Shown here piece after piece: positions 3,366 through 58,461 of a stretch of DNA of 64,000 nt (position 1 is the stretch's first letter; the number at the start of each line of letters is the position of its first letter). The position numbers and the translations under genes were made by a program. The notes below the pieces were generated by a model. That model was not told the origin of the DNA and did no database searches. It worked only from the letters and a program-made list of their open reading frames with translations. The DNA lies in contig NW_021836000.1 of the NCBI RefSeq assembly GCF_006345805.1, positions 124,001 through 188,000 on the forward strand. The letters are read 5' to 3'. This DNA comes from Octopus sinensis. Its lineage: Eukaryota.

Positions 3366-4449
3366 TGTCACAGTCCAGACGTGCGTCACGCCGGACGTGA
3401 GTCACTTTTTAAAAATTTATAAAAATAAATAAAAAATAACTAAATAGATATACCTTACTCCAATTATACCATATTAGTGTTTTTTATGTCTTTTTTGTGG
3501 ATAAAAGTTCATATTATTCCCCCACAAAAAACAAACATAACGCATTTTTGACCCGACATAACGTTTTATCGATTAACTTGAATTTTTTTTATTTAGAAAC
3601 AATTTTAAAATATTAAAAATTATTTTTTTAATTTCCTTAGCCGACTAAACTGTACTTTCTCAATAATATCCCTTTCCTCATTTTCTAAGTCTAATGTGCC
3701 TCCGTCCTGTTTTATCACTCTGTATGCAGATGTATCTATCTGGTCATACAGAGGATATTTTCTCGTGTTTTCATTTATATCTTGATCCATCCGTAAAAGT
3801 GCGTAATCTCCAACTGATATTTCCTCTTCATCAAATCTCCATCTTCTCCTTTTTTTCATTTTTTCGGCCGCACGCCAACCCTAAACCCCACCCTAACGCC
3901 AACCCTAACCCTAATTCTTACCCTACCCCTAGATACAATTGATTAACCTCATTGTGTGTTTGAATAGAGCTAACATATGTCTGCATAGATTTTTGGACGA
4001 GCAATAGTGTATCATTTAATTTAAGTTAGCCGTGTTCAGCTTACAAAAATAAATTTACATGTTTCAAATCTATTTTAAGAAATGAATCCAATAGTTCGGA
4101 TATTCAATCTCTTTCGAATCAACTGCACTATTCTTCAAATGTTCAAAAGTTTTTAGGTCGCTAATTCTACGTAATTCTTTACGTAATCTAAAACATTCTA
4201 CGTAATCTAAAACGTTCTCTTCTACTGATTCCGTCATCAAATGATCCAAATTGTTTAAAAGTTTTTATTTTCAATAAATCATCTTGTAATAGTGTAATTA
4301 GAAACATTTGATAACTTGCAAAATTTAAAAATAAAACACTATAATATATAATATTAATTAAGAAATTGTGATTTTAGAATGATTTTATTATATAGAAAAT
4401 ATAAAAATATCCAAAATCTGACCAAGTGACTCACGTCTGGTCTGTGACA
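3366..4449 (-). mobile_element. Ginger/Tdd-like (integrase-type) DNA transposon, internally deleted
   Basis: TGT...ACA termini; TIR TGTCACAG(T/A)CCAGACGTG(C/A)GTCAC; 5-bp TSD AAACA (3361-3365, 4450-4454). ORF 3620-3859 resembles an integrase C-terminal GPY/F-SH3 region (ISVGDYALL...RKYPL...AYRV...GGTLDL). Confidence 0.8.
3875..3931. repeat. Degenerate (CCCTAA)n telomere-like tract
   Basis: ccaaccctaaaccccaccctaacgccaaccctaaccctaattcttaccctacccc. Confidence 0.7.
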
Positions 4450-4489: not shown

Positions 4490-5095
4490 TTCTTGAGAAA
4501 CTGTTATTTATTAGAAGTTAACAAAGCCATCTATCCGAAGTGGACCCCGCCAACATAATTGACGTTGCGTTGCCTCTCACGATAGCAACGGAGATCAACT
4601 GGAGAAGCCACCGGGTCTCACGTGTGTCGTGGCTTTTTAATGTGGCTAAGCGTCCAAGCTTCTTTAGGAAGCGAAGCGATTTCCCACTTATTCCTCCAGT
4701 TGTCTCGACCACAATCGGACAGAACACGAATCGATCTCGCAACGCTTCATATTTTCTCTCCTTTGCCCTCATCGTTTTTTCCGCGGCATACAATCTGTCC
4801 ACTCCGGCAATGTTGGACGGGCAGAGAGTGTCCACACAGGTTGCGTCCCAGACTAAGGGTTTCCCCTCTTCAAATGGGAAAATTATGATCCCATCAGGAC
4901 GTTTTCCATCTCCTCGGTCAAGCCCGACCGGTTCAAGTACGGCTGGGTATCCTGCAGACTCCAGGTCTCGCTTGACAATTTTGTTGATCGCCTTGTGTCT
5001 TGGAAATCGTCCTGCACTTCTTCGACAAGAGAGAGCATGGTGTCCATAACAATCGACGGTGGCCCCACACCGGCATTTGTGAGTCCGGCAAATCT
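4490..5095 (-). mobile_element. CRE-like non-LTR retrotransposon 3' fragment (CCHC + RLE)
   Basis: HALSCRRSAGRFPRH, DGKRPDG, LVWDATCVDT, PIVVETTG, ISVAIVRGNA motifs. Confidence 0.85.
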
Positions 5096-5129
5096 ACAGT
5101 CTAAATCTCCAGTCTAATCTCTAATCAAA

Positions 5130-5362
5130 TTGATTATATTTTGTACAGAAGGAACAAAAACCTAATTTGTACAAAACTGGAAGATATGGAAAAACAGAAT
5201 TCGAAAGATTGGATACAGAAACTCTAATAAGCAATAAAATAAAGATGGAGGAGTATTGCAGAAAACTAAGAAAGGAATATAAATACAAACAATGATGAAA
5301 AAGATTTGTGGAATTATGTTAGAGCTGCAATGAAGAATACGGCGTCGTTGGTTTTTGGTATA
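5130..5362 (+). mobile_element. RTE-like LINE fragment, left half (continues at 15756)
   Basis: LWNYVRAAMKNTASLVFG joins, with one frameshift, to THKNKFKYNNEEISHFSSELKNLRIRI after 15755. Confidence 0.6.
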
Positions 5363-5525
5363 CAGTCCGACCCCGAATTGGGGCAGACCCCAGTGGTGGG
5401 GCACCCTCGGATTTTGGGGCACTTTTTTTTGGGCAACATTTGGGCAGAGTAAAATGAAAAATCGATAAAAAATACAAAAATTTTGGGGCACTATAAAATT
5501 GTGGGGGATGAAATTATAAGTAAAT

Positions 5526-7060
5526 TGGCAAATTTATCAGATGGTTTATTACCATCCGGTGTGCAGACATAATAGCACTTAACGTTATCCATTATGACAC
5601 AAGAGAAGAATAGTATCTTTCCTGCTCTCAACATGCTCTTTGTTAGGAAAGGAGCCTGTATGAATTGCGCTTTCAAACAGTTCATCCTATAACCGATGTA
5701 GATTAAACCAGCTCCAGATCTACCATTTTTCCTGTTTTCCGCTGACAGGAAGACATTGATATCTACACTCCTAGTTATGACTCTGAGATGTCTCGGATGG
5801 AATCTACCTATTGAACCTATGTTGGTTCTTAAAAGAACCCCGCCTGATGCCGATCTGTCCTTGACGATTATTGACTTCTCCATCATGTTGCTGTGATAAT
5901 TTCTGTAAGGCTCGTTGTCATCGAAATACGAGAGTGACGGATCTACATTGTCTGAGCCTCGACCGTTGTGCGGATCAATGTCATGTTGATCAGAAAAGGC
6001 ATGCACTGGCACAGTCGTGAAAGGCGGAATGTTCATAGCCTCTTGTCTTAGATTGACCATTTGTGAGGGGTCATACTGTCTAGTGATCACCTCGGTCAAT
6101 TTGCCAATTTCGTTGGTCTGAATGTGCCTTGATATCTCTGACTTGTAATGACCGACATGGTCACACAAGTTCATTTTGATAAGGCTGTCCAAAGCAGTCA
6201 GACCTTCGTCGCTGAGTGATAAAACCGCTTCGTGAAGACCCTTCATGTGGTCAACACCCATCACTCTTGTAGGGAGAATAGAAGTCAGTTTGTTAAGTTT
6301 ATCTTTCTGGAGAATCAACTCGTCATAAATGATTTGATCTTCATCCTTGAGTGTCCCTCTGAGTGGGAGAGCATTCTGAACCTTATCTCGGTTCTCGAAA
6401 TACTCTTTCCTGCTCCTTGTGGTATTTTTGCTTGCCGACGCACTCGATACAAAGTCATTTCGGATCAGGTTCGGATCTTTCATTAAGGCATCCTGCCTGC
6501 ACATTTCTTTCTCTTATTGATTTTCCAGCATCACTCTCTCTGCTTTGTCGGCAAAATCGTTAAAGACTTCTTTAATCTTATCACTGGGTAGATTATCAAA
6601 GTAAGTCTTATCAAATGTGACGGGATTATCCAGGTCATTATCCACAAAGAGTGATATGTCGGTTAATTCCAGCATATTCTTGTGATACTCTGGGTTTTCC
6701 TTTAAGTTCTCATCGGATAAATTGTTTACTGCCTCGCGGACATTTCGCATTCTTGTCAACTTGCTGAAGATGACATCAGTTTCGACGACCCTAGGCCTTC
6801 GAACAAGCTGACTTACGGATGACCCTGAATATGCACTCCTGGATAATTGTAACGATTGAACGTCACTCAAATCCGCTCTATTATTCGTTCCAGTTGTCGA
6901 ACAAACTCAAAACATTCGGCAAGTCCTCTGCTCATTGCAAATGGCATGAGAAGTGAAAAAGGAAAGCAAGGAGGAGGCTTTCGGTGTCTCGATTTTAAAT
7001 AAAACCTTTTCTAATAACTCTTCTCTTTCGGTTGCTAAGTTAATAAAATCTGTTCGTTCG
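5526..7060 (-). pseudogene. Intronless, GC-richer virus-like ORF (about 510 codons, two in-frame stops); candidate endogenous viral element of unknown type
   Basis: ORFs 6907-7164, 6514-6870 and 5491-6504 are one frame, separated only by TGA (6907-6909) and TAA (6514-6516). No micro-introns, no TE motifs; flanked by direct repeat TTATAAGTAAAT. Confidence 0.5.
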
Positions 7061-7074
7061 TTATAAGTAAATAA

Positions 7075-7213
7075 TTTTTTTGAGTAATAAAAATTTATAA
7101 GAATAGAATGCAATGGCTTAGTTTCAATCTGCCTCATTAGATATTCATGTTGAATTTCCACCAATTTCGTTATTGTCGGTTCATTTATATTTTCGATATT
7201 GTACTTTTAGGAT
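7075..7213 (-). mobile_element. Internally deleted RLE-type (R2/NeSL-like) retrotransposon end with poly(A)
   Basis: T-run 7075-7081; 3' end GAGTAATAAAAATTTATAA also at about 14298; KPLHSIL coding segment also at 15081-15105. Confidence 0.7.
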
Positions 7214-7310
7214 AAGAATTAAAAGTTAAAATACAATTCTTTTACAACATCTCAAATTGGATTTTTGTGAGAGTTTTTTGATTAAGAAAAATTTTTTTTG
7301 ATTAAAATAA

Positions 7311-8451
7311 ATGGATTATCAATGGAAACTCCAAAAAAATAAATATTGTTATCTAGGACATATTCCAAGATTTTAAACTGCTATGAAGAGCTTCGTTGTA
7401 TTAAATTGTTAAGACTACTTGGAATAAAATCCATTTGATCTCAAGCAGGTAAAAAAGCGGACAAGACCGCATTTACTTCTTCCTAGCATTCGAGAAAAAA
7501 AGATGCCGTCTTGAAGTCAGACAAAGCCACAATTCACGCATAAATTATCAAAAAACAGTTTTGAAATTTACAAAAACATTGCATCCTTCGAATTTACCAA
7601 AACAAAGTCAAACAAATTTCACATTAACCAATCAAAAAAAGATCGGCTTCGTAAGCCCCAGTGGCTGAAGACTATGGATGTTGGAATTCAAACGTCGTAA
7701 GAACCAAGTTTTCAGCCGGGGTCAAATCTTGTCAACGTTCCCCACCCGTGAGGCGACGAGTCCATCTGGCACGACACAGAGTCGAAAGGGGACCTCATTC
7801 CTTCCCCTGATCACATTACCGATGAAGAATCTCCATTATGCAAAAAACCCGTCCGGATTCAAATGAAGTGCGGTGAGCTACGGTAGGAGGCTGACAAATG
7901 GGAACTGGACATACCAGAAATTCCCCACATCTCTTTGGAGACGGATAGCTGTAATGAAGATTTGGAGGCCAATGTTGATCGGCACAAGCAATCCCTTCGT
8001 TCTTTGCTCCTTCATTTGATTAGTTAGTTGTGACTGTTTGTGCTGGGTTTGCCATGTTGTGCAAGCTTGGGGGTTATAAATAAATAAAAAAAGATCGGGA
8101 AATTTTTAGGCGAGGACTCGTAAAGCTTATAATGTTTTCCTTGTACAACAAATATTAGAAAAAACTAAAATACAAAACCAAGAAGACATATCTTTCAGAG
8201 AAATTGATACATTGGTTAGTCTGAATTGCACAACTTAAGAAATACTAGTACTATATAAACAACGGGATCGACACTCAGCACGTCGCATCACTGGACAGAC
8301 AAGTCCTGGACAGCGCCCTTTCAATGATTAGCCCGTCCCTCAAACACGTTTATTTTCTCAAGTTAGACTTGAAGCCAATCGAATGATTTGATCAAGTCCC
8401 TTGTCGAGAATGTACAGGAGGACTATTTGTTGGGTTTGAGAAAGGCAATAG
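7311..8451 (+). pseudogene. 5' fragment of axonemal inner-arm dynein heavy chain (DNAH7-like)
   Basis: Spliced EIDTL/KY*YYINNGIDTQHVASLDRQVLDSALSMISPSLK...VENVQEDYLLGLRKAI resembles the DNAH7 N-terminus (YYIHHGIDTDHVAP...EDYLLSVRKSI). In-frame TAG, a LINE insertion, and truncation after this exon. Confidence 0.7.
7648..8085 (+). mobile_element. LINE 3' fragment with (TAAA)n tail
   Basis: GC-richer insert ending TAAATAAATAAAA; TSD AAAAAAAGATCGG on both sides. Confidence 0.7.
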
Positions 8452-9836
8452 GTGAGACACTCGGCTACGAAGCATTGACGGTTAACCTGCATACATTCGC
8501 GTTTAAACCGCGAATATTTAAGTTTTATAAACAAAAATTAATGTTTTTCCCAAATTAGCTAAAAGCTGTCTTGTTAAAATAAACTTAGATCCAAAAACTA
8601 AAAATTTTATTATAATACAATTCATTATTTATACAATTCTGTGAAGTTGTGGGCGATTGCTCGTTCGGTTAATTTGTCTATCGCATCCTCCGTCTTGTTT
8701 CGAGCATTTGAATAGCAAGATTAAGGTATATCAATGTTTTCTGTTTTCTCACAAATACCACGTTGTAACGTTTGATTTAAACATGTTTATTTTAATTCAT
8801 ATTAAGAAACAAATAAATTAAAATAAATATAGTTTCATAGATATAAAATAATAAAACCTAAATAAACAAACCCGTGTCAATAAGATATTGAGAATTTAAG
8901 CATTCTCAGACAGCACGAACTTGTACCCATTTTTTACGAAGTTGATAGAAATTTGGATTTATGACGTTAAGATTTTTGAATCCATTTTGAATTTGGTGAA
9001 AATACCAAAAACTTTTGTTATCACTGAATTAAGCATTTCTCCATATTAAAGCTTGAATCATTAATGTAATCATTAGTGACTATATCGGGATTGTAAATTA
9101 AAGAAAATAAATTTAACATCCAATTTTTAAAAAAAAGCCTTTTCGAATTCTCAAATATGTTTGAATAACATCAAATGCAATGTTTTCATCATCAAGATTT
9201 CAATAATTTACAATGTTTTCATCATCAAGATCTTTGCAACGTTTGAGACAAATAATAATTATTTTCGTTTCTCTTTAAATTTTGGATAGTTATTTCTTTT
9301 TTCCCAATCATATATTCAACAAATATTTTTGGGAAATCTAACATATTCAATGAAGTGGTGATCGTTGGTAAACTTTTTTGAACAAATATCAATGAAATAT
9401 TCTTTTCGAATGTTTTATTGCGCTTGCGGCAGTTTTGACATTTTATTGTATTCCAGACACGTAAAAAATCAAAAACTCACTCAATTTTAAACACTATTAA
9501 TATATTAAAAATGCTTACTTTTTGAATTAAATCACTCACGTTAATTTTGAAGATTTTTCTGTGCGGTTATCATATGATTATAAATAATAAATTTCTTCAA
9601 GAAAATCCAACTGTGTTGTTTTTGTTTTTGAAGACATACTTTTGCCAGAATAAATGTACTATATCAAAACTTGTGGTAAATCAGCTAATTATAATTTAAA
9701 CACCATCATTCTTTATTACCGCAAAGAATTATTTATTTAAACTACCATTGTTTCACTCAATTTTATTTTGAGAATTTTTTGTACAGAAAAATTATCAGAG
9801 TTATATTTGATAAAAAGGTTATTCAACTTAGTCTTA

Positions 9837-9953
9837 ATTAAAAATAATTTAGTTTGCCTAAAGTGATAAAAGATTAATCGAAGGGAGGGTCAGCCGCCTG
9901 ACGGATCGCCAAACTGTTCCCCCGGATAACGGCGATCGAAAACCGAAGTTTTT
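9837..9953 (-). mobile_element. Very short CRE-like 3' end
   Basis: Encodes FSIAVIRGNSLAIR; near-identical copies at about 35210-35300 and 63590-63680; TTAGTCTTA on both flanks. Confidence 0.7.
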
Positions 9954-10078
9954 TTAGTCTTAGTTGAAAATTTTTTGATATTTGATTTTAATAAAGGTTA
10001 GTATTTGTCCAAAAAAATAAATTGTTAGTTATATCGATTTCCAGAGACTAGGAGTGAATAATTATTTAAAACATGTCT

Positions 10079-11443
10079 CTATCTAATATTCAGTGATTTT
10101 TTCATTTGTGATATCAAGGGCGATTGTCCTTGGCCGCATTCATCTCCATTAACATCGTCAAAATCTAAAGTCCAAACAAACATCCCTGCTAGTCCATTAT
10201 CTTTCACATATTTTCCCTACAAGATAAAGAAAAATTTATTTCCCTTTTCTTTAATACTTCTGATACTTTCATATCCCAACCAATGATAGTCCTTAACTCC
10301 ATGAGAAGCTTTTTGCTTATCGTCCCAAACTTCATCATAACCTTGATTAGAATACTAAAAATTTTTTTTAGAATAAGAAGTACCTCAATATAGGCTAGAA
10401 TTCCTGATTCTTTTGTTATCGGTCCTTGGCTAGGTCCCCCAACGATTTTATCTCCAATTTTTGGATTTTTTGATCTAGTTTTGAATCCTTGTCCGTAGGT
10501 TGGTAACCCGATGAGTAGTTTTGACTTTGGAGCACCGTGCTTAGACCAATATCTGACTACATAATCCTGTAAATTTTGAGTTTATTTAATCTGAGTACAG
10601 TGTTGAATGTATCAGCATCGTTTATTCCATATAATCCTGTATGATGGCCAACAGTGTCCGAAAATTGACCGTAGAAATCATAAGTCATTAAATTGATGTA
10701 ATCAAGATATCTAATTTTCAGAATGTGAATATTTAACCTAGAAATTTCTCTTATGTCATATGAAGACTGAATTGTCGACACTCCTGCTGAAACAGCTGCT
10801 GTCAACAAATATCTTTTCGAGCCTTTTTGAAATTCTGTGCTCATAATTTTCAAAAGTCGACTGTACGCTTGTTTTTGATTCGTAGGAAATTCCCAATCAA
10901 TGTCAAATCCGTCAAAATTGTATTTCTTTAAAAAGTCTTTTGTTTTTTTAGCAAATGTTTCTGCATTAGAGTCGCTTCTTGATACAGTCGTAAACTCATT
11001 GAGCAGTTTGTTCCACCCTCCGACAGAAAGCAAGATTTTCAAACGAGGATTCAAACGTTTAAGAGAAGTGATTCTATGAAAATCGTTATATTTACCTAAT
11101 ATATATGTAAAAAATTACCTCCAGGCAAGTCAGACCAATTGTCATTTGAAATAATAGAAAGATTATTTACATCAATGGTGCAGAATGCATATATTATATG
11201 CGTACAAAGGTTTGCTAAATGGCTGTCATCGAATTCAAACCCCCCTGGCCTGTATTTTGCCCAGTTTGTATAATAGCAGAACAATACTTTAATAATTATT
11301 CATTTTTATGCTACCTTTAGATTCCACTGGCATAAAAGAATGTGTTAAATCAATTTTTAGGATTTGAACATAAATAAAAAAACCGACTTTTTTAATTAAC
11401 AAAAACACCAATTAATTAGAAAATAACTAGTAATCAACCACAT
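10079..11443 (-). CDS. Secreted GH18 chitinase, catalytic domain only, 8 exons
   Basis: Signal-peptide-like [15 protein letters not shown]; [30 protein letters not shown], intact [11 protein letters not shown] (DxxDxDxE), [21 protein letters not shown]. Seven short introns restore an open frame to TAG. Confidence 0.93.
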
Positions 11444-11689
11444 AATGAATAGACAATTATCATAATGGAACTAGAAGTCTTTGATTTAAGGCTGCCAAAA
11501 TATAAAAGATTTACTGACTAGCAAATTAGCGTTCATTTTTTGACTGGCCATGAAAATCCGTTGGAAAAGTCCGAGTAAAAGTGAAAATCGTTATCAAAAA
11601 GCCATGGTACACTAGTTTAAATTTAAGCTTGCTAATGTGAAGATTTTTATCGCATAAGGATATTTATAAAATATCGATTTATACATATA

Positions 11690-12075
11690 ATTTATTTATT
11701 TACCCCTGCCCCCTTCAGTTGAAGGAAACCGGTGGCTAACAAGAACGAAATTGTCAATGTCGGACGCTCCCAAAGATCCCCGATCGCGATCCGGCGTTTT
11801 GAGGAATCAGAAGGTGGGCCTGGACACGAGAAAAGGTCACTGAGAGAGTGAGAATGCGTGAATTCAGCAAGGCTTATTCTTCGACGATAATTGCGTAGCC
11901 AGGTATGATGGCCACAGCGGAGACGGGCCAAGTTTATTCGGGCTTCTCCAAAAGGGAGGATTCGTTATTGTTTATTGGTGGCGGAAAGCGTCCCAGAAGC
12001 TTGTTTATTCCAAGACATCTGATTGCCTTCGTAGTTACCAAGTCGTGAATTCTCTTTTGGTTATCTCGGATGAAG
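11690..12075 (-). mobile_element. I/Jockey-like LINE 3' fragment
   Basis: ARLRCGHH...HSLSDLFSCP...DLWERP; (TAAA)n tail. Confidence 0.65.
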
Positions 12076-12399
12076 CAGCATTATTTGTTATGCCAAAGTA
12101 ATTTTTATATCCCTGAAATCCATCGAAATTTGAAAGTGGTTTAATCAGGGAATTGCCCTTTAAAATTAGGGATCAATCATTAATCAATTTCGTTACTAAG
12201 ATGACGTTATCGAAAAAAAGCTTTGGTAGACATGCAACTCGCTAGATACATATGTTCTGCTTATCTGGATAATTTGTCTACAATTTTGAGAATTTGTGAA
12301 GAACACAGATTGATCTAAATAGAGATATTGGTTCCTAGTCTAAAATATTTTCCTAAAACGTCGTGTTGAAGAATATTTGCGCCTGATTACACCAATAGT

Positions 12400-13330
12400 A
12401 TAAATTTAATTTATACAAACAAGACAAAAATTACAGATAGCTAAGTTAGTTAAAGGCCTCACGAGACACCCGACCAGCCGCGCGAATGGCGAAGACGTTC
12501 CCTCGGATCACAGCAATCGACAGACGTTCCAGGAGCCAAGAAAACTCTCTTGGATCGTGACTAGTCCTTGAAATCCGTCGACCGAGCGAGCGAAGGAAGC
12601 GGAGTGTCTTGGGACCGAAGATCCCGGAGGACTCCAAGGCAATTGGAGTAAAGAGCAGCGAGTTGGACAGGTGGCCGTACTTGAGAATCTTTCGCTCCTC
12701 GGCCTGCCTGGAAGCGTGCCCAGGATTGGCGGCGGACAGCGCGAGATTTCCCAGCGAGAACGTGTCCGAGCAGGTAGAATCCCAAATAAGGGATTTCCCC
12801 TGCTCGTAGGGGAAGGTGGACATGCCGTCAGGGCGTTTGCCATCCCCTCTATCCAATCCAACAGGTTCAAGGATAGACGGGATGCCTGCTGAGGCGAGGG
12901 CTCTCTGTATGATCGAGTTGAGTTCACTGTGACGGGGAGCACGACCGGCACTCCGCCGGCAAGCGAGGGGATGCAAACCGTACTCGTCAACAGTTCCCCC
13001 ACAACGGCATTTGTGCGACTGGCAGATTTTCAGCCCGACACGGAGGGAGATTGCAATTCTTAGGCATTCCTTGTCCAACAGGTTCCCGATGGAAGGGAGA
13101 GGGAGAGCCTTTAACCAGACACCGCTGCTTTCACAGCGACCTGCACGGAGGCAAGCGACACGGTGTTGATTGGAGACAGGAAGCAGGCCTTCGAAGATTG
13201 CCTGACAAGAGATTTCGTCCCATTGGCGCTGTACAGATTGAGAGTTGGGCAGCTTCGAACCAAACCGAGCCTCCCACCGACCACGGGCTGCAGAGTAAAC
13301 TTCAGACAATTTCCGTTCGGGGAGGTTTCT
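12400..13330 (-). mobile_element. CRE-like retrotransposon 3' portion (open 287-aa ORF with CCHC + RLE)
   Basis: SGVWLKALP, HKCRCG...HPLAC, RHSELN, RPDG, WDSTCSDT, ERKILKY, PIALESSG, LSIAVIRGN. Confidence 0.9.
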
Positions 13331-14296
13331 ACCAATTGTTATCGCTTTTGAAAAAAATAATTAATTTTAAATATCATCATTAACAAAGCTTTTAAATAAA
13401 TACGATTTCTATTGTTTTTATTTATTTTGTTTTTGAATAAAAATTAATTATTCATAAAAATCTGATTTAAATCAAATAAATCCCGTTTAAATTAAACAAA
13501 TCTGAATCAAAATAATTAATTAAATTAAAACCCCTTTCATGTCTTTTAATTATGTTTTTTTACTTAAAAATTGTTTTTTTCTTTGTTACTCTTCAAATTT
13601 AATAGAGATGGCAGCAAATTCTTTAAAAATTGAATAAAAATTTTAAGGAAAACAATTAAGCAACCGACATACCAAATCATGCTTTTAATAATTATATAAA
13701 AATTTTATAAAAAAAACAAAATCAGTAAAAAATTAAGTTGAGAGTTTATTTGAAAAGAGCATTAGTCAAAGAGTTGTCATATATAGGCAATATCCGGGGT
13801 CAACATGGATAGTTACAAACTTGTGTCGGAGGAAGCTTCAAGCATATTCCTGTACTTTGCTTTTGTTGAGGAATGTAAAGAAACTATTTTTACCTAATTA
13901 TAATCACCATTTTTTAAGCGAGAAACTGATTTTTCTTTAATATTACTGAAAAGATCATCAATGCATGGTTTTACAGCAGTGTTTCTTAACGTGGTCCCCA
14001 GAAATATGTTTAGGTCAATTAATTCATTTTATTCTACTTTTTTTTGTTATTTGATTGTAATGGTTAATCGCAAATAGATTGATTCTTATGTCCAATATGG
14101 ATTTACAAAATATACTGGATCTGAAAACGTCGATATCTTGAAAATAAAATTGGAGATTATTTCCCAGTTAGTGAACCAATTCGTCAGGGAATATGGCCAG
14201 TGTCAAACTCACTGCGGGCACGTCCTCTAATCCCGTTCTTCTTCTATATGACAATATTTGCTGCATAAATGCGGTTTAAAAGTTAAAAATTTTATT

Positions 14297-15102
14297 GAGT
14301 AATAAAAATTTATAATAGCATTTTTTAAGCATCTATATTTTTTTAGAACAATCTTAGTCTCTTATGCCAAACTATCATAGTCGGTGCATAGAGATCCTCG
14401 TCCACTTGTATTCCTGATTCAGAAGAATCCTTCGGTTGACACTCAATCACTGCTTGCTCCTCTTCGGGAACCGATATTCCATGTTTTGTCTCCACCTGCA
14501 TACTCTCCAATGTTTTGTGTTTGGATATATGCCTCCACTCTGTCTTCCACTGCGATAGAATCCAGATGACTTTTAAAGAATCTTGAGACAATTCCATCCC
14601 AAGTAAGTGCAACAGGGATAATCTTCACTTTAGCCCGATGAATCGCCCCTAATTCATTTGTCAAAAGGTCATATTTGTGGAACTTTTTCACTTCAACTTG
14701 CTTTAGGCAATTTTGTGAGGTAATCCCAACTTCAATGAATGTAATTGTATTTCTCATCTTGTCTTCGACAAAAATATCTGGTTTATTGTTTGAGACAGCC
14801 GTATCCGTAGAAATAGTGGTGTCCACTCGAATTTCCACGTAGACATTTGACAACTTCATTGTGCCGTCTTAGATAAGAGCTGTTCAGCATTCTTCCACAT
14901 CTGGTAACGGTCTTCTTTGCTGAGTTGCAGTGATTGCATTAATTTTCTCCGTTATCAAAAAAACAAATTTCGATCCTGTAGTAGACAACACATTCCTTCA
15001 GTTCTTGCAGAGTTGTTTCCATGAACTAGCTATTCTGCAGATTCATTAACATTAACTTCAGTGTCCTTCAAACACTGGAAAAGAATAGAATGCAATGGCT
15101 TA
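14297..15102 (-). mobile_element. RLE-type (R2/NeSL-like) retrotransposon 3' fragment
   Basis: LQDRNLFF, CNHC, NKPDIFV...FIEVGITS...EVKKFHKYDLL, IIPVALTWDG (PD-(D/E)xK nuclease). Confidence 0.85.
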
Positions 15103-15182
15103 GTTATAAGTAAATAAAATTATATTTTATTAATAAATACATAATTTAAATTTACACGTTTATTTACATTTTTTTGTTGTCA

Positions 15183-15668
15183 ATGGTTATAAACTACGAA
15201 ACAAAATTAAAGATTGCTAAATTGATATTGAAGAACAAATTATCTGAAAGACAGATAATTCAAAAATACAAAATTAGTAAAGGCATGATTTCACGAATAA
15301 AAAAACAATTGTGCCTTTTCTTGAACAAGGAACTGTAAACGCGGATGAAGATTCAATTGAAAAGATTCGTGATTCCGTAAGAATCGAAGATAGCATTACA
15401 GAAGAATTAATCAACAATGCCGTAAACGAAACATTGAATGGGGAAAATGACGAATTTGTAGATAATATTTATAACGAAGGCTTAGAAAAAGATAACATGA
15501 AAACAATTCTAAGAGAAACGCAAGATTAGCTTGATCAGTTAGAGAAGAAAATTTTTCACATATTTCCTGAAATGCTCAAAGAATTTTACGATTTTTGACT
15601 TAATTTTATAAAAAAATGTAAGAAGTAAAAGGAAAACTGCGGATAAATTAACTGATTATTTTTCTAAA
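15183..15668 (+). pseudogene. Internally deleted Tigger transposase (HTH N-terminus + acidic C-terminus)
   Basis: MVINYETKLKIAKLILKNKLSERQIIQKYKISKGMISRIKKQ (HTH) fused to an acidic tail ending in LTDYF, upstream of the right TIR. Confidence 0.75.
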
Positions 15669-15755
15669 ATTGATTTTTGATGTTTAAAAATCTCTGTTTT
15701 TATTAAACCCTCACTTTTTGGGGCACTTGGTGCCCAAATTCAGGGTCGGACTGTA

Positions 15756-16200
15756 CTCACAAAAACAAATTCAAATATAACAACGAAGAAATATCACACT
15801 TCTCTTCAGAACTAAAGAATTTGAGAATTAGAATTAATAAATATACGAGTCAAGACCTAAAGATTGTTCGTAGAATGATTTCCTTCCTGATAGAAGATAT
15901 TCACCTGGCTGTCAAAATCGCAAATACCGCTTCCAATTTTTTTAAGACCACTCGTGAGTTCCACAAGGGGATTCGTTGTCGCCTATTCTATTTATTATTT
16001 ATCTTGAGGGTGCACTTAGGGATCATCCATCAATGAAAAATATTATGAGTTGATTTATGCGGATGATCAGGACTTTGTATCAGATGATTCTGAATTTCTC
16101 AAATACATAAACGAACATTTTCCTAACATTTTATAAAGATGGTTCTTGAATTTAAACACTGACAAAAATGGAATTTACATTATTCAGACGTGCAGAGGGA
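15756..16200 (+). mobile_element. RTE-like LINE fragment, right half
   Basis: VPQGDSLSPILFIIYLEGAL and IYADDQDF RT motifs, with frameshifts. Confidence 0.75.
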
Positions 16201-16249: not shown

Positions 16250-17480
16250 TAATACTGTGGTATTACATTCGTTACGACAGAGAAGATTATAGAGGTCATG
16301 GACCCAATGAAACACGTGTCTAGAACGTAATTAATCCACTGGATCGTAGAGATCGGTCGGCACTGGCTTGAGTCATTTGCCAAGATCGCGAAAGGCGGAA
16401 GAGTAACTTCGAATCTCTTTCTTTGGCTTTTGACTATAGCGTCTTTCATCGCATTTGGTTCTTCATGAAAAGGACGTTCTGTTTGTATATTATTGATATC
16501 TGACATCCCGATTCGTTCTTTCAACATCAATCAAATGGGTTTATCTCTAATCTGAAGCCTTATTATAAATTAACGTCTTTAGTTACTAATAACTAACTAA
16601 TCTGTATAATTCTCCTCCTTTTTGGACCGTTGCACTGGATCTGCGTATTCTCCTCCTCTAACACTTCATATGACACATGAGACACATCTTCCGGCAAATC
16701 TGATGGATCTGTTGTTTCTCTAGCCAATTTTAGGAGGTGGTTGGTGGCTCTCGAAATTTGTTCCTCATGCTTTTCAATTTCCACTCCATTTTTATGTTCA
16801 ACAAGCATGGTTTTCAATGTCTTTTTAATCGTCAGCGATTGTATATACGATCTAGTGGAAGCATCCAACTTCAGTCTTTCCATATAAGACTTATAGAATT
16901 TAAAAACTATCCCGTCCCATGTGAGGACAATGGGGATTATCGTTACCTTCGCACCGTGGATTTGAGATAATTCTCCAGCAAGAAATGATAATACTAAATT
17001 TATTTGAAAAGTTTAGATAAAATTGATTCTTAATTATAGCGTTTGCTTTCAGTCGATTCTGCTCCTCTTCAAGCTAATGTTTTCGACTGGTACACTTATC
17101 TATTTTACAGGGCAGACCACTTTTGTGGTTGTTCTCGAGTCCGATTTAATCGCATGATTCGCCGTTGTAGGCAGGAGTTTGTACTCCGGGCGCATGCTTT
17201 CCAGTGTTTTCTTGATTACGATTGTCTGGACATATGCCCGCGTTGAATAATGGTCTTGTAGCGAATTCTGGTAATGCTTATAGAATTTGGATGTTATTCT
17301 ATCCCACGTGAGAACTTTTTCATTATGATTGAACCTCAATTCGCTTGCCTAAAGGTCGTATTTATGTAATTTCTCAACTTCCACATGCTTCAATGATTGT
17401 TGAGAAATAATCCCAACTTTGATCAGTGTAATGATGTTCCGAACTTTGTCGTATTCAAAAACTTTCGATTTATTATAATT
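16250..17480 (-). mobile_element. Two tandem RLE-type retrotransposon 3' fragments
   Basis: IIPIVLTWDG...YIQSLTIKKTL (16593-16985) and VGIISQ...EKLHKYDL...LTWDRITS...YVQTIVIKKTLES (17100-17480). Confidence 0.75.
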
Positions 17481-17889
17481 GACTACAAAATTGAGTAAAG
17501 CGGTTTTTTCGTATCTCTTCAATTAAGTGCTTTCCTTGCAAATGTCCGGAAGGTAGGCCAGAATGAATTCTCACGTACCGAGATCCATTAGGAAACCTGT
17601 ATACCCCTTTCTTAATAGAGTAATTCAGAGATTTTCAATCTTCTCAGGTTTTGTTGACGCGTCTACATAATTAGGATCGTCCGCGTAGCAAGAGCCAATA
17701 TTATACAATGACTTTCATATTTTATGTACGTCATTAGTCAAAATGGAATAAGCTTATCAAATCCTGAAAAATCAAAATTCAAGTGATGATCGTACATATG
17801 TACATCATCACGGAATCGCATTAAGCCACCACGAAACGTTTCGTAACCCCAAGCAATAAGTGAGTTGCTTCTGTGCTTCAGGGATGCTG

Positions 17890-18590
17890 CTTACCAGCTT
17901 GCGGAAGTGGAATGCTGCCGTGACACGCCGGTGAAAGCTATGAGACAAATAGAAAATTTATCTGATGAGGAGATAGAGAGTGAGGAGGAACTGGTTTCGA
18001 ACTCTTCTTGTTTTTGCGCATTTGTAATACTAAATACTCTTTCACAATTTGAATTTGATACTGGAATTGACTTTAGCACTGTGTAGCCGTTAAGACTGTA
18101 CACAGCTAAAACGTCACCATCGAATAGTTTGATACTGTCACTTTCATTCAATTGTTCTCCGGACAGTGTGGGATGTTCTTTCTGTCCTTTTTATGGACGT
18201 TAGTATTAACTGTTGGGGAGGTTGTTATTGGCTGCGAAAAGATTCTGTTGATGTTTTCTCCGGAAAGGAAATGGATTCATTCTAGTGCGGATAGGGATTT
18301 CAAGCGCAAATGGGACAAGGCTGATTAGACGAGACTATTTTTCCCAGCTCTCTAAAATAAGCGCATTTTTGATAAACGATGAATGGGGAAACGTTTAGTT
18401 TGGCGGACTTGGTAATCCGTACGGATATTTTTAAAAAACCTCGGAAATCGGATAGTTCAATGAGAAATGAGTTGACATCCAGATTTCCGAAATTTTTTTG
18501 TAGGTCCAATTGGGCAAATACAATTTTATTATTTGTCCTTTCATAGTTTCTGAAATAACCGGCATCGAACAACAACAGCAACGACAATAA
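17890..18590 (-). mobile_element. hAT transposase C-terminal remnant
   Basis: Dimerisation motif LKSIPVSNSNCERVFSITN; upstream LDVNSFLIELSDF. Confidence 0.55.
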
Positions 18591-18829: not shown

Positions 18830-19330
18830 TTGACAAATGTGGCATCGGATAAAAAATCGATGATATACAAAACAGTTATTTTTCTTAAAATTTGAAAGAG
18901 GACGCATTAAAGATTTCCAACTTGCTTTGACCCTTATTTAAAGTCTTGCTCCCAATCCTAAATGGGGAGATGTCAATATACATAGCTAGCAGTTGTCACA
19001 TTTGTAACGGATTTATTTTGGTCGTAAAGTTAATGCAGGACATCCAGTCTTCTCTGGTGTAACCCTACTATAAGAATATTTGAGAACTTTGAGACTGCCC
19101 TATCCCATTTTAAGATTACCGGAATAATCTTTACTTTTCATTTGCAAGAAAATCATATTCGTGATATTTCTTTATTTCAATTTTCTTTGGAGTTTTTTAA
19201 ATAATGTTAAGATAAATAAATTTGTACTTTCTTTTGTCTTGTAGACAAAAATGTCGGGTTTATTGAATAAGGCAGCTTTGATTTTGGCATTTTGGGTCGA
19301 AATAGACAACCTAAATGTGCTTTCTATTCA
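18830..19330 (-). mobile_element. Degenerate RLE-type retrotransposon fragment
   Basis: NKPDIFV, KKYHEYDFLANE, IIPVILKWD. Confidence 0.65.
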
Positions 19331-21050
19331 TTTTTCGGTCCTACATACATTTAAATATAACCGAATGTAGTAAATTTTTTCTAACTGTTCAAAATTAAGA
19401 TTTATTTGAATAAGAAAGAAAGAAATAAAATTAAGTTTAGTTAATGATTGTTTCTGTTTCTGATTCGATCTATAATATAATCAGCTCGCTCCATCAAAAT
19501 TCGTATAAACCGTTCAATTATGTTGATTACATTTATATCATCCAGTATCAGCTCCTCTTCGTCTAACCATTGGTCTAACTCTTCAAGTGTAGATATGATG
19601 TGGATAATTTCATTTATTTCATTCTCAAAATCGTCATTGTTCTCAGTATTTTCCGGGGTTGGAATTCTTTGCACCATTTCTGTTTTTCTCAATTTTTTGC
19701 TATTTATAATAAAATTCAACACGTGAGAAGATTTTGTTTTAATTCAACATTTTTATTAATAGTATCACTTTTTTGAAAAATATCAAAATTTTATGACTGA
19801 ACTATTTTTTAATTTCCTAAGTTTTATTAAACAAAATATATTTTAATTGTTCAAATCTTTTATTTTACACATTAGATATATTTTTTGAATTGTAATTTGT
19901 CATTAATTTTTATACATATTATGAGTAATTTATATTTAACATTATTGTGACTCATTTCTTTTGCTAGTTTATTAATTTAAACATTATACATTAATTTTGA
20001 AATAAATTATCATTTATTGAACTGAGTTGCAGGTTTTTGCTATCAGTTCATTTCATGTTAGGTAGTAAAGGCGTTTTACGATAAATTATGAAAGACATCA
20101 GATCAGACACAAGATTTACTTGCAATGCACAATATTAGATAAAAAAGAAATTCAGGAAAAATTAAAACAAGCTTTGTTTAATCTTGGTTTTGGGAGCATT
20201 TTGAAATTTTTACGCCCAAAGATCAGATCAGACTTAGGCCTCGATAATAGAGCTAAAGTTGGCTCACATCCCGCCGTATAGCAAAATAAATGAAAAAATT
20301 TGTTTCTTAAAAGGAAAAAGAATGACTTTTTGGTTCAAAATATTTGTTTTTACTGCCACTAATACACTTTACTGAAAAAATAAGAAGTCAATTCATTCCA
20401 GATAATTAGTCTGCTTCACATTGAAGCATCAGGGCCATTATTTGTTTAGAACATAATTTATTAATGTATAGTTCTGTCCCGATGTACCCAAATATTCATT
20501 TAAAACATAATTTGATTTTATCTGAAGGGGCACAACCATCCTGATACACTCCCCATTTGAAATCATACTAAAAACACGCTCAACAACTATTTCTTCCTCC
20601 TTTTATTTTCCAGTAAAAAATTCACCGAAAACAATCTCCTTTTACTTCACAAGACACAGCAGAGTCGCAGGAACTTAGCTAAGCCACTTGTGCAATCACA
20701 TCGACTTTTCGACACGTTCATGGACAATTTGGAATCTACCTGGTCAATAAAGACCCCGTGACTTGAGTGACGGAGACCAAGGTGTCTCTCCCTTTCCATT
20801 TTTGTGACGTCGGTGCGAAAAAGGAACTGGGAGAAGTCGTAGATACTCAGGAGGTAACACATTTTGAGAGAGGCATTGTCAGTAAAAGGAAAGCAGGCCA
20901 AACAAATACTGTTGTTAAAATAAAACGTACAAAGTTTTATTTTGTAATTTAAAAATAGATTTATTAAATAATTAGGTAAATTTCATTTTGAATATTTTTT
21001 TGTAAAATCACTATTGGTTTCACGTTTGGTTTTACGTGATTTAAGTTGAA

Positions 21051-22215
21051 ATGGATTCAGAATATGAAATTATGATAAAATATTTTATCAATGGCACAAA
21101 ATATGGAAGGAGGAATAGAAAAGGTTTTATTAAAGTAAATATCCTCAAATAAAAAGTTCTTGGATGTCTTATTCAGCTTTCTACGCCGAAAAACGGACTT
21201 CTTTACTCCAGAAGCTAAAGACAAAGCATATTCTGTGACAACCCATAGCTTATATTGCTTATTAGATGGTTAAAAGTCGAATGGACTATCAATTTTCCCT
21301 TGTCAAAGAACAGCCAAAGAAGCCCGAAAAGCCACAACCACGCAAAGTCGTTAATGAGCCTCCACCTGAAGAAGAAAAGGTGACCGAACTAACTGACCAA
21401 GAATTTGAGAGACTACAACAACAGAGTATATTATTTATTAATTTAATAAATTAATTAAATTATAACTCAATATGAAAATAATTATTTTTAGATATGGAAG
21501 ATTTAACACCAGCTAATGGAAATAATTCTGATAAACTGACAGAAATTCCTGATGAAGAAGACGCTGAAGAAGACAGGGGAAAATTGGCGCCAAATTCAGG
21601 AAATGGCGCGAATTTGGAAAATTATTCATGGACCCAAACGTTACAAGATATTGAAGTATTTTGTCTTTAAATGTCACTTTCAGCTCAAAGTCCCCATAAG
21701 ACTTCCCTCTGGTGCAAGATTGAGAGGAAAAGACGTGAATGTCAAAATTTCCAGAAAAAATCTCACAGTCGGACTAAAAAATGCGACACCGATAATCGAC
21801 GGAGACCTCTACGCAGAACTAAGGACAGATAACTGCACGTGGGTGGTTGATGGAAGCACAGTGACGGTGTTTTTGGAAAAGGTTAACGACTTTTTTGACA
21901 TTTAGGTGAACCAAATGGAGTGGTGGAGTCGTCTGGTTACGACGGATGTTGAAATCAACACCAAAAAAGTCAATCCTGAGAATTCTAAGGTTTTTTTTTT
22001 AGGATTTTTGTGTTTTAGCTGAGTGATCTTGATTCGGAGACTAGAAATGTGGTGGAGAAGATGATGTATGATCAACGACAGAAGGAATTGGGACTTCCTT
22101 CTTCGGACGATCAGAAGAAACAGGATGTAATGAAGAAGTTTGGAGGAATTGGTTTATTTTTAGGTTTATGGCACAACATCCCGAAATGGATTTCTCTAAC
22201 TGTAAATTTTCGTAG
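21051..22215 (+). CDS. NUDC: Nuclear migration protein NudC (multi-exon)
   Basis: [52 protein letters not shown] domain, [67 protein letters not shown]. Exon 1 lacks about 2 nt (possible assembly error). Confidence 0.93.
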
Positions 22216-31275: not shown

Positions 31276-31769
31276 TCAAAAATATTACACCCCTTGACTT
31301 TTTGACAAAAAATCAATTTTCTATACTAATAATTGATTAAACTATTTTTATGCAATTTAGTTCTTATTAGAGTTGATTTACTAATTTTTATTTTTTTAAA
31401 TTAAAAATCAATTTATTTTATATCTGTTAGTAAAAACATGAAAAATTGCCGCCTCATAAATAGTACATCATTTAAAAAGTCAGTATTTGGTGTGCCCTCC
31501 TTTATTTTTTGATGACTGCTTTTAGTCTCGAGGTCATTGATTCCACCAATTTGATACTATTTCCTTTGGAATTTTTTTTTTCCATTCTTAAATAATTAAA
31601 TTTTCTAGATTTTTTTGTTTTGTGACGTCAAATGTTTCAATTTTTCTTTTTAAATAGCACCACAGGTGTTCAATTGGATTTAAATCTGGCGACATGCTCG
31701 GCCAGTCCATTTGCAAGATTTTTTTCAGTCAAAAAACTTTTAGTATTCTTTGCAGTATGCTTCGGATCG

Positions 31770-32488
31770 TTATCTTGTTGGCAGAGCTCTTTTGACCTCA
31801 TCTCGGAAGGTCGGTACAAATAAACCCTGGATCAAGAGTGAACGCTCCTCAGACGTCTTCAATACCGTCCCCAGAGTTATTATTCTTGACAAGACTGCGT
31901 TCCCCCCGTTGTAAAAGCCAACAGTACAGAACCTTAGTACAGACACTGGGTCATAAGGGTTTGATCCCAACATCTTATCAAGAAGACAACACAACTTATC
32001 CAATGGTTGCTTCTCTACGTACTTTAAGGAGAATTTAGCGACAAGGTTTTGATCAGGGTTAAATGACGGTGACAGACGCGCCATTGCTGAGTTGTATCTC
32101 TCGATTAAGGCCGTCACGGCCTCGGGGTTCCTCGATTTTACTTGACTATATCGGATCGGGAAGAGTACCCGCATAAAGGCCTGAGCCCATTCGCTCGCTG
32201 CAGGATTCTTCAAAGACTCGGCAGGTCTAGGCCTGCCTATTGATATAGGGTCTTTGGCTCGAAATATCTTAAAAGCTTTTGCTCCCAGCTTGTACATCTT
32301 CGTGGTGGGTTGCTGAGGAAATACGCCAATGCGTATGCGATAAGCTCCTGATTAAAGTAATCAAGCCTCCCAAGCTCGTCGATTACGTGGGTTCCGATAC
32401 TACCAACAGAGAATGCGTTGATCCAAGTTCCACTCGATTCGCATTTTCCAGTCACTAAACAGGCACGTCTGTGTTGGTTTGATTGGTT
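31770..32488 (-). other. Endogenous viral element: rhabdovirus/Mononegavirales-like nucleoprotein fragment, copy 1 (175-aa ORF 31770-32297)
   Basis: DKLCCLLDKML...SVLRFCTVGFYNGGNAVLSRIITLG...LIQGLFVPTFRDEVKR parallels the conserved rhabdoviral N core (KIVAAxDMF..xxLRxGTxxSRFKDCAAL...WI...xDExxR); GC-richer and intronless. Confidence 0.75.
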
Positions 32489-34393
32489 CAGAAGCCTCTC
32501 ATATTTTCAGCAATATAATTTTTTCTTTAACACGTTTTACTGGTCGTAATAACGTTTTTTTACATGGTTTTCGATTTTCTAGTCCAAAAGAATATAAGCA
32601 TTCCTTATTGTTGATCGAGAAAGTCGTAAATTGTGCTCATTCAATGTAATTTGCAATTTCTTGTAAAGTGGAAAATGATTTTGATCATATTTCGTCAATA
32701 TGCGTTTTTAATCGCCAGAGTAAGTTTTTCTGGACGACCAGAACCAACGGCACGTTCAAAAGGCATTCCATTTTTATTTCGCGCTGAGTTGCTGCACGAA
32801 AGATTTTGAAACATTGAATTCTTTAGCGATTGTTTCTTTGTGAGCCTCCTCGCCTTAAGTGTTCCGCAATTAAATATTTTTTGATCAGGAAACTTTGAGA
32901 TGACATCGTGCTGTATTTTGAAATTAATTATTAAAGAAAAATCAAGTAATTATAAAAAAAAGTGTAACAAAAATAAGTGTCGCAGTAATAGGGATTCCAG
33001 GAAATAGCGATCGTTAGTAATAGTGCGCATAGTATTCAAATATAAATAAATTAACAATTTATAAATCTATTTAAAAAAAAAAAAAGTATTTTTTTTTGAA
33101 AATGTTTTTAATTTTTGACAAAAATAATCAATTTTATTTGAGCAGGATATATCATCGATGTGCAATATGAAAGGGATCAGATTATGATTATGAGTCAATG
33201 CGAATTTACCGTCAACACTCAGTACCGCCAATGAAATCGTTCTTCAGGCTCCGGGCTGAATATACTGTCGTTGGGCTTTTACAGCACGACAGGGTCCAAA
33301 TTAGTTCGACGAATCTGTGATCAATCATGAGGCCCCTTACGGCTGGATATTAATAGGATAGCTATCGTGGAAAAGCTATAAAAATTTTGTTCGAATAAAC
33401 TCGCTTATAATCTTAAATTTTTGTTTTTTATGATGGCAATCGAAATATGACCAACTATTTGCTATTTCACATAAAAAAAAGAATTTGAATTACTTTCCAT
33501 ATTTCATTTTGTTTAAATAAAAATAAATCGAAATCAAAATACACTCCATAGCAGATTAAACCGCTGAAAATTGACTAAGATTGTTAACAAAAAGCGTCAT
33601 TAATACATTTAAAAAAAAAACGTTCAAAACAATAAACGATCTATCTTAAGCAATATTTCATTATTCCTGTACGCTTTAAAGCAGATTTTGTAGTAGCTAT
33701 TTATTAATTTATAAAATTATCAAATTAACGAAAAATCGTCCTGCCAGTATTTGTCTTTAAAGATGTCTCTATTTGGACAATTAAAATTTTTATAATTATT
33801 TTACTTCGATCGCTATTCCTGAGATCTCTATTTACGTAATTGATTTTTGTGGTTGTAGTTTAAAGTTTATAATAGACAAATTGACATGAAAATGCTATAG
33901 CTGACGAATCAGTAGTAGATTGAGAGGCATAAACAGCAATGTGTTACGTTCGGTGGCCTAGACTTATTCTCTGAGAGGAGTCCTTGTGTATCTGGACAAT
34001 TCATTCAATATTATTAAAGATTCCATTTGAGATAGTTAAAGTTTTCTTCTTATATCACTTGACTGAGTTGACAGCTATAAGGAGTACTTTGCATTCAGAT
34101 TTCCAAAATGACTTCATCAATGCAAACCGAAACACCTACAGATGCACATAGTTTTTGACTTAGTTTGATGACGATTCTTCAATTAAAATATTTTTAACAG
34201 AATTTCCAGGTAAGCTCAAACTATGGATCAGCAACTTCCTAAGTGGACGAAGGTATAGGGTATACCTCAGAGGACTGAAGTCAGGTCTTCTGCCTAATGG
34301 AGTACCGTCGGGTTGCTTTTTAAATATTTGAATTAAATTGACTATTCATATCTAACCTATTTCTTATCGATGAATCTACACATTTTAGGACTC

Positions 34394-52394: not shown

Positions 52395-53025
52395 GAATAT
52401 GCCTTCGTCTCGGACTACCGATTTGTAATCCCCACCCCTGCCGGTGTGGATCAACGATGGACACATACGGGCTCCATGCCCTTTCCTGCAAGAAAAGCGC
52501 AGGTCGCATACCTCGTCATTCGGCTCTAAACAAGATATTCTCCATGCCCTCGAAAAGGCAGGGTATCCTTCTGTCCTTGAGCCAATTGGTCTTGACCGTG
52601 GTGATGGAAAAAGGCCTGATGGCTCGACGTTGTTCGCTTTCGACGATGGTAAACCACTAGTTTGGGATGCCACGTGTGTTGATTCCTTCTCTAAGTCGGC
52701 CATCAACGAATCCGCCTCTCTGCCCGGGTCCCGTGCTAATAGGGCTGAATATACAAAATCCGAAAAATACCGGGGCTTGTTAGACGGCTTTTGGTTTTGG
52801 CCAATTGTTGTTGAGACTTCGTGCGTCTTTGGCACAAAGACAGTTGATCATCTGAAGAAACTTGGCCACCTCTGTTCATTACGCTCCAAGGATCCTAGGG
52901 AATTTACATTCCTAATCCAAAGGATCCTGTTGGTCGTTGTGCGTGGGAACAGCTGTTCCATCCGGCTTGCTGGCCGATTAATTTAACCTTTAAACTCTTA
53001 TTGAAAGACTTTTGTATAAAAAAAT
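52395..53025 (+). mobile_element. CRE-like retrotransposon 3' fragment (same family as 41736-44924)
   Basis: GLHALSCKKSAGRIPRH, RPDG, WDATCVD, LIQRILLVVVRGNSCSIRLAG. Confidence 0.88.
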
Positions 53026-58118: not shown

Positions 58119-58291
58119 AGAGTTGTAAATGGTATAGTAATTAATTAAACTATTTTTATGCAATTTAGTTTTCATTAAAGTTGATTTACTTACTAATTTT
58201 TATTTTTTAAAACCAAAAATCAATTTATTTTATATCTGTTAGTAAAAAATGAAAAATTGCTGCCACATAAATAGTACATCATTTAAAAAGT

Positions 58292-58461
58292 ACATCCTCA
58301 CATCCTCATTACATCCTCATCTCATTCAGAGGATCCTGCTGGCTGTCATGCGTGGCAACAGCTGTTCCCTCCGTCTCGCTGGGAGAATTTATTAGTTTGT
58401 TGACTTTACTTAGTAGTTTGACCCTTTTGGAAATTTTAACATTGTACAAAAAAAAAAAAAA
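58292..58461 (+). mobile_element. Short 5'-truncated CRE-like insertion with poly(A)
   Basis: Matches the 3' end of the 41736-44924 element; TSD ATTTAAAAAGT (58281-58291, 58462-58472); empty site in Tc1 copy 1 at about 31470. Confidence 0.9.

Follow-up and report, generated by a model that had tools for sequence, protein, structure and literature searches.

Chromosomal segments can be duplicated by way of extrachromosomal circular DNA (eccDNA); cattle KIT, tilapia vasa and a case attributed to Chicote in 2020 are reportedly among the examples, and extrachromosomal circles of dicyemids are said to have been described by Noto in 2003. In African apes, according to the accessible text of Damert 2022 (PMC9132208), an lcr16a circle was reintegrated by SVA-SVA recombination and became the founder of NPIPB, and the same text leaves the uniqueness of that event open. 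For human eccDNA duplications, the accessible part of Takahashi and Innan 2020 (PMC7188851) reports no evidence of local homology at insertion and takes comparison with the donor as its basis. The dicyemid circular contigs longer than 500 bp in the accessible sections of Zverkov 2019 (PMC6543705) have a median length of 702 bp and are mitochondrial or non-coding. Here we consider a stretch of 64,000 nucleotides from contig NW_021836000.1, filed under Octopus sinensis (the window), in which two copies of one retrotransposon family, lodged within a DNA transposon, enclose about 7 kb of cargo with a chitinase gene. Integration of a DNA circle through the retrotransposon copies is, in our judgement, the best explanation of this arrangement and a fairly probable one.

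The principal observation is that the flanks of the two retrotransposon copies are swapped. Read in the orientation of the element, the locus runs from an outer target-site duplication (TSD) through the right copy, an inner TSD, the cargo and the second inner TSD to the left copy and the other outer TSD (Table 1). The two flanks of each copy differ from one another at three of 13 positions, the same three in both cases, whereas the crossed comparison, between flanks of different copies, gives no mismatch at all. Separate TSDs for each copy, which an earlier reading of this sequence (the original prediction) had named as the finding that would speak against it, are thus ruled out. Its proposal that the segment entered by homologous integration of eccDNA, or by equivalent ectopic recombination, is supported by the crossed flanks, by the inner TSD and by an empty acceptor site in other copies of the host transposon. 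The circle model predicts a second, inner TSD, and exact matching revealed one, a 13-bp repeat that the original prediction had lacked.

Table 1. Features of the locus, in positions of the window
Feature	Positions	Strand	Basis and remarks
DNA transposon, left part, non-autonomous, TA-flanked	5363-5513	+	Inverted end 5363-5385 (repeat I14), TA 5361-5362
First 12-bp target-site copy, native transposon sequence	5514-5525		Exact match and contig joint
Insert A (1,534 bp), a single frame of 511 codons interrupted by two stops	5526-7059	-	12-mer at both sides
Outer TSD, left copy (3' flank of left retrotransposon copy)	7060-7074		Exact match
Left retrotransposon copy, 3' end of 21 nt (block A, 7080-7100) with short A tail	7075-7100	-	Block A = 14295-14315
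Left retrotransposon copy, upstream of 767-nt deletion	7099-7218	-	Block B 7099-7123 (= 15081-15105) and block X 7124-7218
Inner TSD (5' flank of left retrotransposon copy)	7219-7231		13 nt identical to 14276-14288
Cargo, 7,044 bp of intron-containing genomic DNA with neither terminal repeats nor tail	7232-14275		
Dynein heavy chain 5' exons, axonemal, putative; one in-frame stop	8150-8451	+	PDB match
GH18 chitinase, five introns	10079-11290	-	Pfam GH18
3' fragment of second retrotransposon family	12446-13360	-	Related copies 4518-5093, 41830-42404, 52397-52973
Inner TSD (3' flank of right retrotransposon copy)	14276-14288		Exact 13-nt match
Right retrotransposon copy, 5'-truncated at block B	14289-15105	-	Zinc knuckle, restriction-like endonuclease, 3' untranslated region (block A), tail
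Outer TSD, right copy (5' flank of right retrotransposon copy)	15103-15117		First 3 nt overlap block B
DNA transposon, right part, internally deleted	15118-15753	+	Helix-turn-helix (HTH)-like N-terminus from 15177, inverted end 15731-15753, TA 15754-15755

When 3 nt of slack was allowed at two fixed junctions, an exact match of at least 13 nt was obtained 4 times in 100,000 random pairs and 18 times in 100,000 AT-rich pairs. At both 3' junctions the tail and the target motif stand in one register (36 of 40 positions, ungapped), so that the inner repeat has the look of a normal insertion scar of the family; and since the outer motif is proven target DNA by the empty site described below, the inner motif is most simply target DNA too. 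Among the four relatives from metagenomes that were examined for their flanks, only one, the distant relative L002, has a readable flank pair; it ends in the same 8 nt as the local copies and then passes into a different 11-nt direct repeat, so that the inner repeat probably does not belong to the element itself. Closed on one complete copy, the inner flanks give a computed circle of 7,982 bp. The copies share just 46 nt, all of them identical, and consequently hold zero subfamily markers by which chimerism could be scored.

The site that received all of this DNA is a 12-bp sequence. Exact matching bears out the original prediction that one 12-mer recurs at 5514, 7061 and 15104 and that a 15-mer brackets the block; a scan of the window found no copy of the 12-mer on the minus strand, and 7 matches against 2.35 expected when up to one mismatch is allowed. 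The maximal exact extension is 12 nt for the pairs that include 5514 and 15 nt for 7060-7074 with 15103-15117. Between 5000 and 16000 this is the sole triple 12-mer outside low-complexity sequence, besides a subterminal repeat of the DNA transposon, and the two retrotransposon-bearing ends have four exact blocks of at least 13 nt in common, namely the 15-mer, block A, block B and the inner 13-mer. The edge letters of the 15-mer, G and TT, may equally be retrotransposon sequence, given its 3-nt overlap with block B, and the true duplication is therefore 12-15 bp; the same overlap means that the order of insert A and the retrotransposon-bounded block is not fixed. The 15-mer was considered as proof of insertion order and rejected, its edge being explained by block B.

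For an empty site we turn to contigs from three public runs of one sample, aligned to 5000-16200, whose depth is not to be read as copy number. From totals of 27 joints, 394 loose ends and 1,855 pieces, the contig results listed comprise 15, 15 and 21 respectively, and the absence of a joint from them is no evidence against it. One contig joins 5513 to 15104 with 12 shared letters, which is the transposon free of any insert, and this single empty site, from other copies of the host transposon, is the state before both insertions. Because the joint holds a single 12-mer, all 9.6 kb must have entered one 12-bp site in the transposon, and they arrived in two events, as insert A (5526-7059) and as the retrotransposon-bounded block (7075-15102). 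Another contig joins 5352 to 15754 and so represents the outer flanks without the transposon; these flanks are part of a decayed reverse-transcriptase element (RVT_1, E 0.002). The transposon itself has inverted ends of 23 nt, matching at 21 of 23 positions, with TA outside both, and its right part gives an HTH-type Pfam match (E 9e-5). Its remnants consist of the HTH-like start and an acidic end, and a DDE/D transposase domain was not found in them. We take its affinity to be Tc1/mariner-pogo-like; the acceptor is a deleted, pogo-like element that we do not class as a member of Tc1/mariner-pogo.

Judged by their sequences, both copies belong to a retrotransposon family that lacks long terminal repeats (a non-LTR family) and is of the restriction-like endonuclease (RLE) type. 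The block does open with an A tail and RLE 3' end and close with the 5' truncation of the same family, as originally described, and the left copy does reach further upstream; its end, formerly put at about 7213, has to be moved, since family similarity runs to 7218 (tblastn, P0004). Forty relatives were found, and the full-length ones P0008 and P0011 carry PF00078 and match L1 and R2 structures; in full-length relatives the reverse transcriptase lies upstream in the same open reading frame (ORF), a region absent from the truncated local copies. The right copy is decayed by stops and frameshifts, and its translation has a CCHC knuckle and then an endonuclease, common to the 40 relatives and with no such match in Pfam; these motifs are presumed, and the R4 label likewise reflects a resemblance that we assume. 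A contig joint leads from 15080 back to 7099 in two runs, and the order X-B-Y, with Y the right-copy sequence ending at 15080, is thus native to the family. Three retrotransposon junctions have a loose AT-rich motif in common.

Some observations on the family stand apart from the block. L002 lies between matches to large-subunit (LSU) and 5S rRNA, inside neither; in L002:1-3477 the LSU rRNA match is prokaryote-sized, the DNA is very GC-rich and an 11-nt direct repeat is found at the element ends. At 16590-17520 two more 5'-truncated RLE copies, of other subfamilies, stand in tandem, the upstream one being followed by a target-motif-like sequence one base off register, and further RLE fragments occur at 17877-17966 and 19072-19360.

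The two copies in the block are asymmetric. Blocks A (21 nt) and B (25 nt) are identical between them, and the left copy is internally deleted by 767 nt, so that B jumps to A with a 2-nt overlap at the joint. A clean crossover predicts 820 shared nt in both copies, and the left copy holds 25 + 21 nt. The original prediction of a single crossover with a circle of about 8 kb thus holds for the swapped order, but the 767-nt deletion is not explained by a simple crossover. The upstream break of the deletion falls no more than 25 nt from the right copy's 5' end, a coincidence with a chance of 25/900 or about 3%, and this adjoining break, together with the shortness of the 25 + 21 nt, suggests one-sided copying. 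An unrelated later deletion in the left copy is possible, and between one-sided copying and a clean crossover with an unrelated 767-nt deletion we lean slightly towards the former. The same junction bears on ectopic gene conversion from a linear tandem array of cargo and retrotransposon copy, with no free circle. From such an array the identical order and the identical swapped flanks are also to be expected, and chromosomal templates would suffice; yet an array is needed, of which there is none among the contig results listed, and a halt of the copying 25 nt beyond the point where homology begins would be left without a cause. We consider gene conversion of this kind quite unlikely.

Circle integration would have proceeded as follows, both the circle and the repair route being our inference. 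A retrotransposon copy with the outer TSD would first have been resident in the 12-bp site of the DNA transposon, and a second copy of the family, with its own 13-bp TSD, would have sat in a 7,982-bp circle cut from elsewhere in the genome and with the chitinase gene and the beginning of a dynein gene on it. Through their homology the two copies would then have brought the whole circle into the chromosome and left the flanks swapped. By the one-sided route, one broken end would pair with the copy on the circle, synthesis would continue once round the circle plus 25 nt and halt where the original pairing began, and 2 nt of microhomology would serve to join the product to the opposite resected end. 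A variant start, in which target-primed reverse transcription switches template onto the circle, would lead to the same product.

The cargo is of DNA type. The introns of its chitinase gene measure 23, 27, 32, 29 and 27 nt, four of them GT-AG and one GG-AG, and the retention of all five in the sense of the element argues against an RNA intermediate. This evidence weighs on a 3' transduction, in which the site received a reverse transcript of read-through RNA spanning one copy, the cargo and a second copy. The block does start with a 5'-truncated copy and end in an A tail and then a duplication, as such an event would have it; however, five chitinase introns are kept in the sense of that very RNA, and two copies with identical 13-mers on their facing ends would have to exist at the source beforehand, which makes transduction extremely improbable. 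As to the gene itself, the last intron (10243-10217) begins with GG instead of GT, which may mean that this copy is defective or was called wrongly. Contigs whose letters differ across the gene suggest that chitinase paralogues exist. A public gene model, P0001 (chitinase-3-like, 10082-14859), bridges 3 kb to combine the chitinase exons with the right copy's endonuclease fragment, and this fusion is probably an annotation artefact. The cargo was also considered as a terminal-repeat element in its own right, a possibility rejected when its end repeats did not rise above background.

The original prediction spoke of a chitinase/dynein segment, and its chitinase half is secured by Pfam GH18. The dynein label stays putative, the sole PDB match of the exon being to dynein heavy chain 7 (residues 166-197 of 4,024 aa) at E 0.45. 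The adjoining exon on its own had no match, nor had a further search, and no candidate for the next dynein exon came out of a pattern search of the window; when the cargo was scanned in three frames against PDB, even the known dynein exon was missed, and those scans are uninformative. A protein of 4,024 aa exceeds the remaining 5.8 kb, so that, if the dynein label is right, there is a break inside the cargo, which is what a circle predicts. A deeply covered repeat with no family match (7580-8130) lies just upstream of the dynein exons. The second retrotransposon family in the cargo has no Pfam match; we take it to be a CRE-like RLE family.

The introns bear on the host as well. The only named match, at 100% for both the right copy and the chitinase, is a predicted fusion protein recorded under Octopus sinensis, and introns of 23-32 nt point to a dicyemid instead of the octopus named on that record: in the accessible texts, dicyemid introns have a median of 27 bp (PMC6543705) or a mean of 38 bp (PMC6736024), and Octopus sinensis is a host of Dicyema japonicum (PMC6736024). 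From intron sizes and host record, the contig is probably dicyemid DNA in an octopus assembly; we found no literature stating that dicyemid contigs occur in the Octopus sinensis assembly. At 21260-22200 lies a CS-domain (nudC-like) gene with very short introns by eye, a good marker for host placement.

Such an origin raises the question of an assembly artefact, by which a separate contig, or a real extrachromosomal circle, was threaded into the chromosome via the retrotransposon repeat. The contig does seem a minor foreign component of another animal's assembly, dicyemid samples are rich in circles (PMC6543705, accessible text), and no long read or contig crosses the block among the contig results listed. 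Against this, the blocks shared at the left junction are only 25 + 21 nt and a misjoin does not make a novel deletion joint; the contig on record is 285 kb long, and both outer duplications and the ends of the host transposon are intact. An artefact is accordingly very unlikely.

If the block came from a circle, the two ends of the cargo would once have been neighbours, and for this there is a hint. Rebuilt by script with one 13-mer, the cargo ends form a single frame in which two presumed reverse-transcriptase motifs follow each other in the order and at the distance expected. Random joins gave the same pair in 4 of 40,000 cases under a strict definition and in 80 of 40,000 under a loose one, figures to be read in the knowledge that the motifs were chosen after viewing the sequence.

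Insert A supplies a different perspective on the site. It is intron-free, with a GC content of 42% and neither poly(A) nor inverted ends. No relatives were found in the protein collection, the Atlas, 1.84 billion representatives, NCBIfam or viral contigs; Pfam gave one sub-threshold match only, and the structure model was unusable (predicted local distance difference test, pLDDT, 33). Its first 140 nt lie under deep contigs and may be a repeat. Our guess is that insert A derives from a viral or mobile RNA copied in trans. That it entered the same motif with a 12-bp duplication, no tail and no inverted ends lends some credit to a further scenario, in which a head-to-tail dimer of truncated copies formed first, its middle motif was recut and linear 7-kb DNA was captured with a 13-bp TSD, involving neither recombination nor permutation. 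Template jumping or target re-use could form such a dimer, R2 end-to-end jumping being cited in the accessible part of PMC2881922, and two related truncated copies do stand in tandem at 16590-17520. Target re-use, however, predicts that the middle site equals the outer one, and the middle differs at three of 13 positions while the outer pair is perfect; read-through RNA gives no reason for a spacer exactly one duplication long, the 25-nt overlap would remain a 3% coincidence, and the motif pair hints that the cargo ends were formerly contiguous. Dimer formation and capture is for these reasons unlikely.

Several points nonetheless weigh against circle integration. At 10 of 13 positions the outer site agrees with the inner one, a likeness that indicates target preference, so that the inner match weighs less (as low as 1 in 8 under a strict motif). 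Insert A is an instance of featureless DNA that duplicated the same motif on entry. None of Pfam, NCBIfam, PDB, a home-made profile and BLAST against the window confirmed the reverse-transcriptase relic at the rebuilt inner site, a plasmid search yielded no further profiles for it, and a loose contig end at 14188 (run X2) cuts its left motif. A joint between the two cargo ends is absent from the contig joints listed; if the donor already carried a retrotransposon copy, such a joint is not expected. The contig results listed likewise include no donor locus, empty inner site or permuted copy, and none of the listed pieces spans the whole stretch. A contig of run X1 is unbroken over 8442-8795; unless X1 shares this arrangement, the circle junction therefore does not lie immediately behind the dynein exon. 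Finally, dicyemid circles are mostly shorter than 1 kb in the accessible text of PMC6543705.

Elsewhere in the window are two Tc1-like elements, 97% identical (31470-32980 and 58462-59970), each of which carries, behind the transposase start, a minus-strand orphan frame of 193 aa (31773-32351, 58759-59337). By eye we presume a resemblance of this frame to a negative-strand virus nucleoprotein; no usable result for it came from Pfam, NCBIfam, Atlas, PDB or a fold search. The second Tc1-like copy holds a short CRE-like fragment with a long A tail (58281-58470), enclosed by direct repeats of about 11 nt, for which the first copy (near 31460-31480) represents the empty site; the duplicated sequence resembles the 12-mer target motif on the opposite strand. 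A few degenerate CCCTAA-like repeats at 3870-3930 are possibly an interstitial telomeric remnant.

The locus bears on how DNA circles re-enter chromosomes, and displays the swapped-scar signature with an unrelated element in an invertebrate. Two copies with inner and outer TSDs can be searched for genome-wide without knowledge of the donor, and the asymmetric junction leads to a specific prediction on the repair route. One could go further and suppose that RLE copies in dicyemids serve as landing pads for multi-kb gene-bearing circles, which would re-enter the germline by one-lap copying, possibly started by the element endonuclease at a motif open to re-use, where orphan DNA, insert A for example, would be captured as well. 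We think this extension rather unlikely; if true, it would be a recurrent mover and duplicator of genes such as chitinases in an animal that forms circles as it develops. As a single unconfirmed event in decayed elements, the locus is a good example and not a new system.

Its probable mechanism belongs to a class that is known and rarely documented; for the locus itself, or for retrotransposon-mediated circle integration in dicyemids, we found no literature in a search to which most subscription papers were closed. The R2/R4/NeSL group, in the accessible texts of PMC7650587 and PMC2881922, resembles our family in its single ORF with reverse transcriptase, CCHC knuckle and endonuclease, in 5'-truncated copies and in TSDs, whereas the target here is a loose AT-rich motif and not an rRNA or snRNA gene. 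The probable host lineage makes many DNA circles, though the accessible sections of PMC6543705 describe neither an 8-kb gene-bearing circle nor reintegration. As in the human eccDNA duplications covered by the accessible part of PMC7188851, the segment would have re-entered elsewhere after circularisation, opened at a new point; unlike them, it offers homology with a retrotransposon copy as the main evidence and no donor comparison. Closest is the SVA/lcr16a case as given in the accessible text of PMC9132208, with cargo between two direct copies of one non-LTR family and with one TSD marking the outer boundaries and the other the inner ones. There, reciprocal subfamily markers occur in both chimeric elements, and the donor and shifted exons are known, whereas the octopus-contig locus has neither donor nor markers. 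It differs, too, in its RLE family, its short asymmetric copies (767-nt deletion, 25-nt overlap) and its invertebrate host, and in having its target inside a DNA transposon that also took a second insert.

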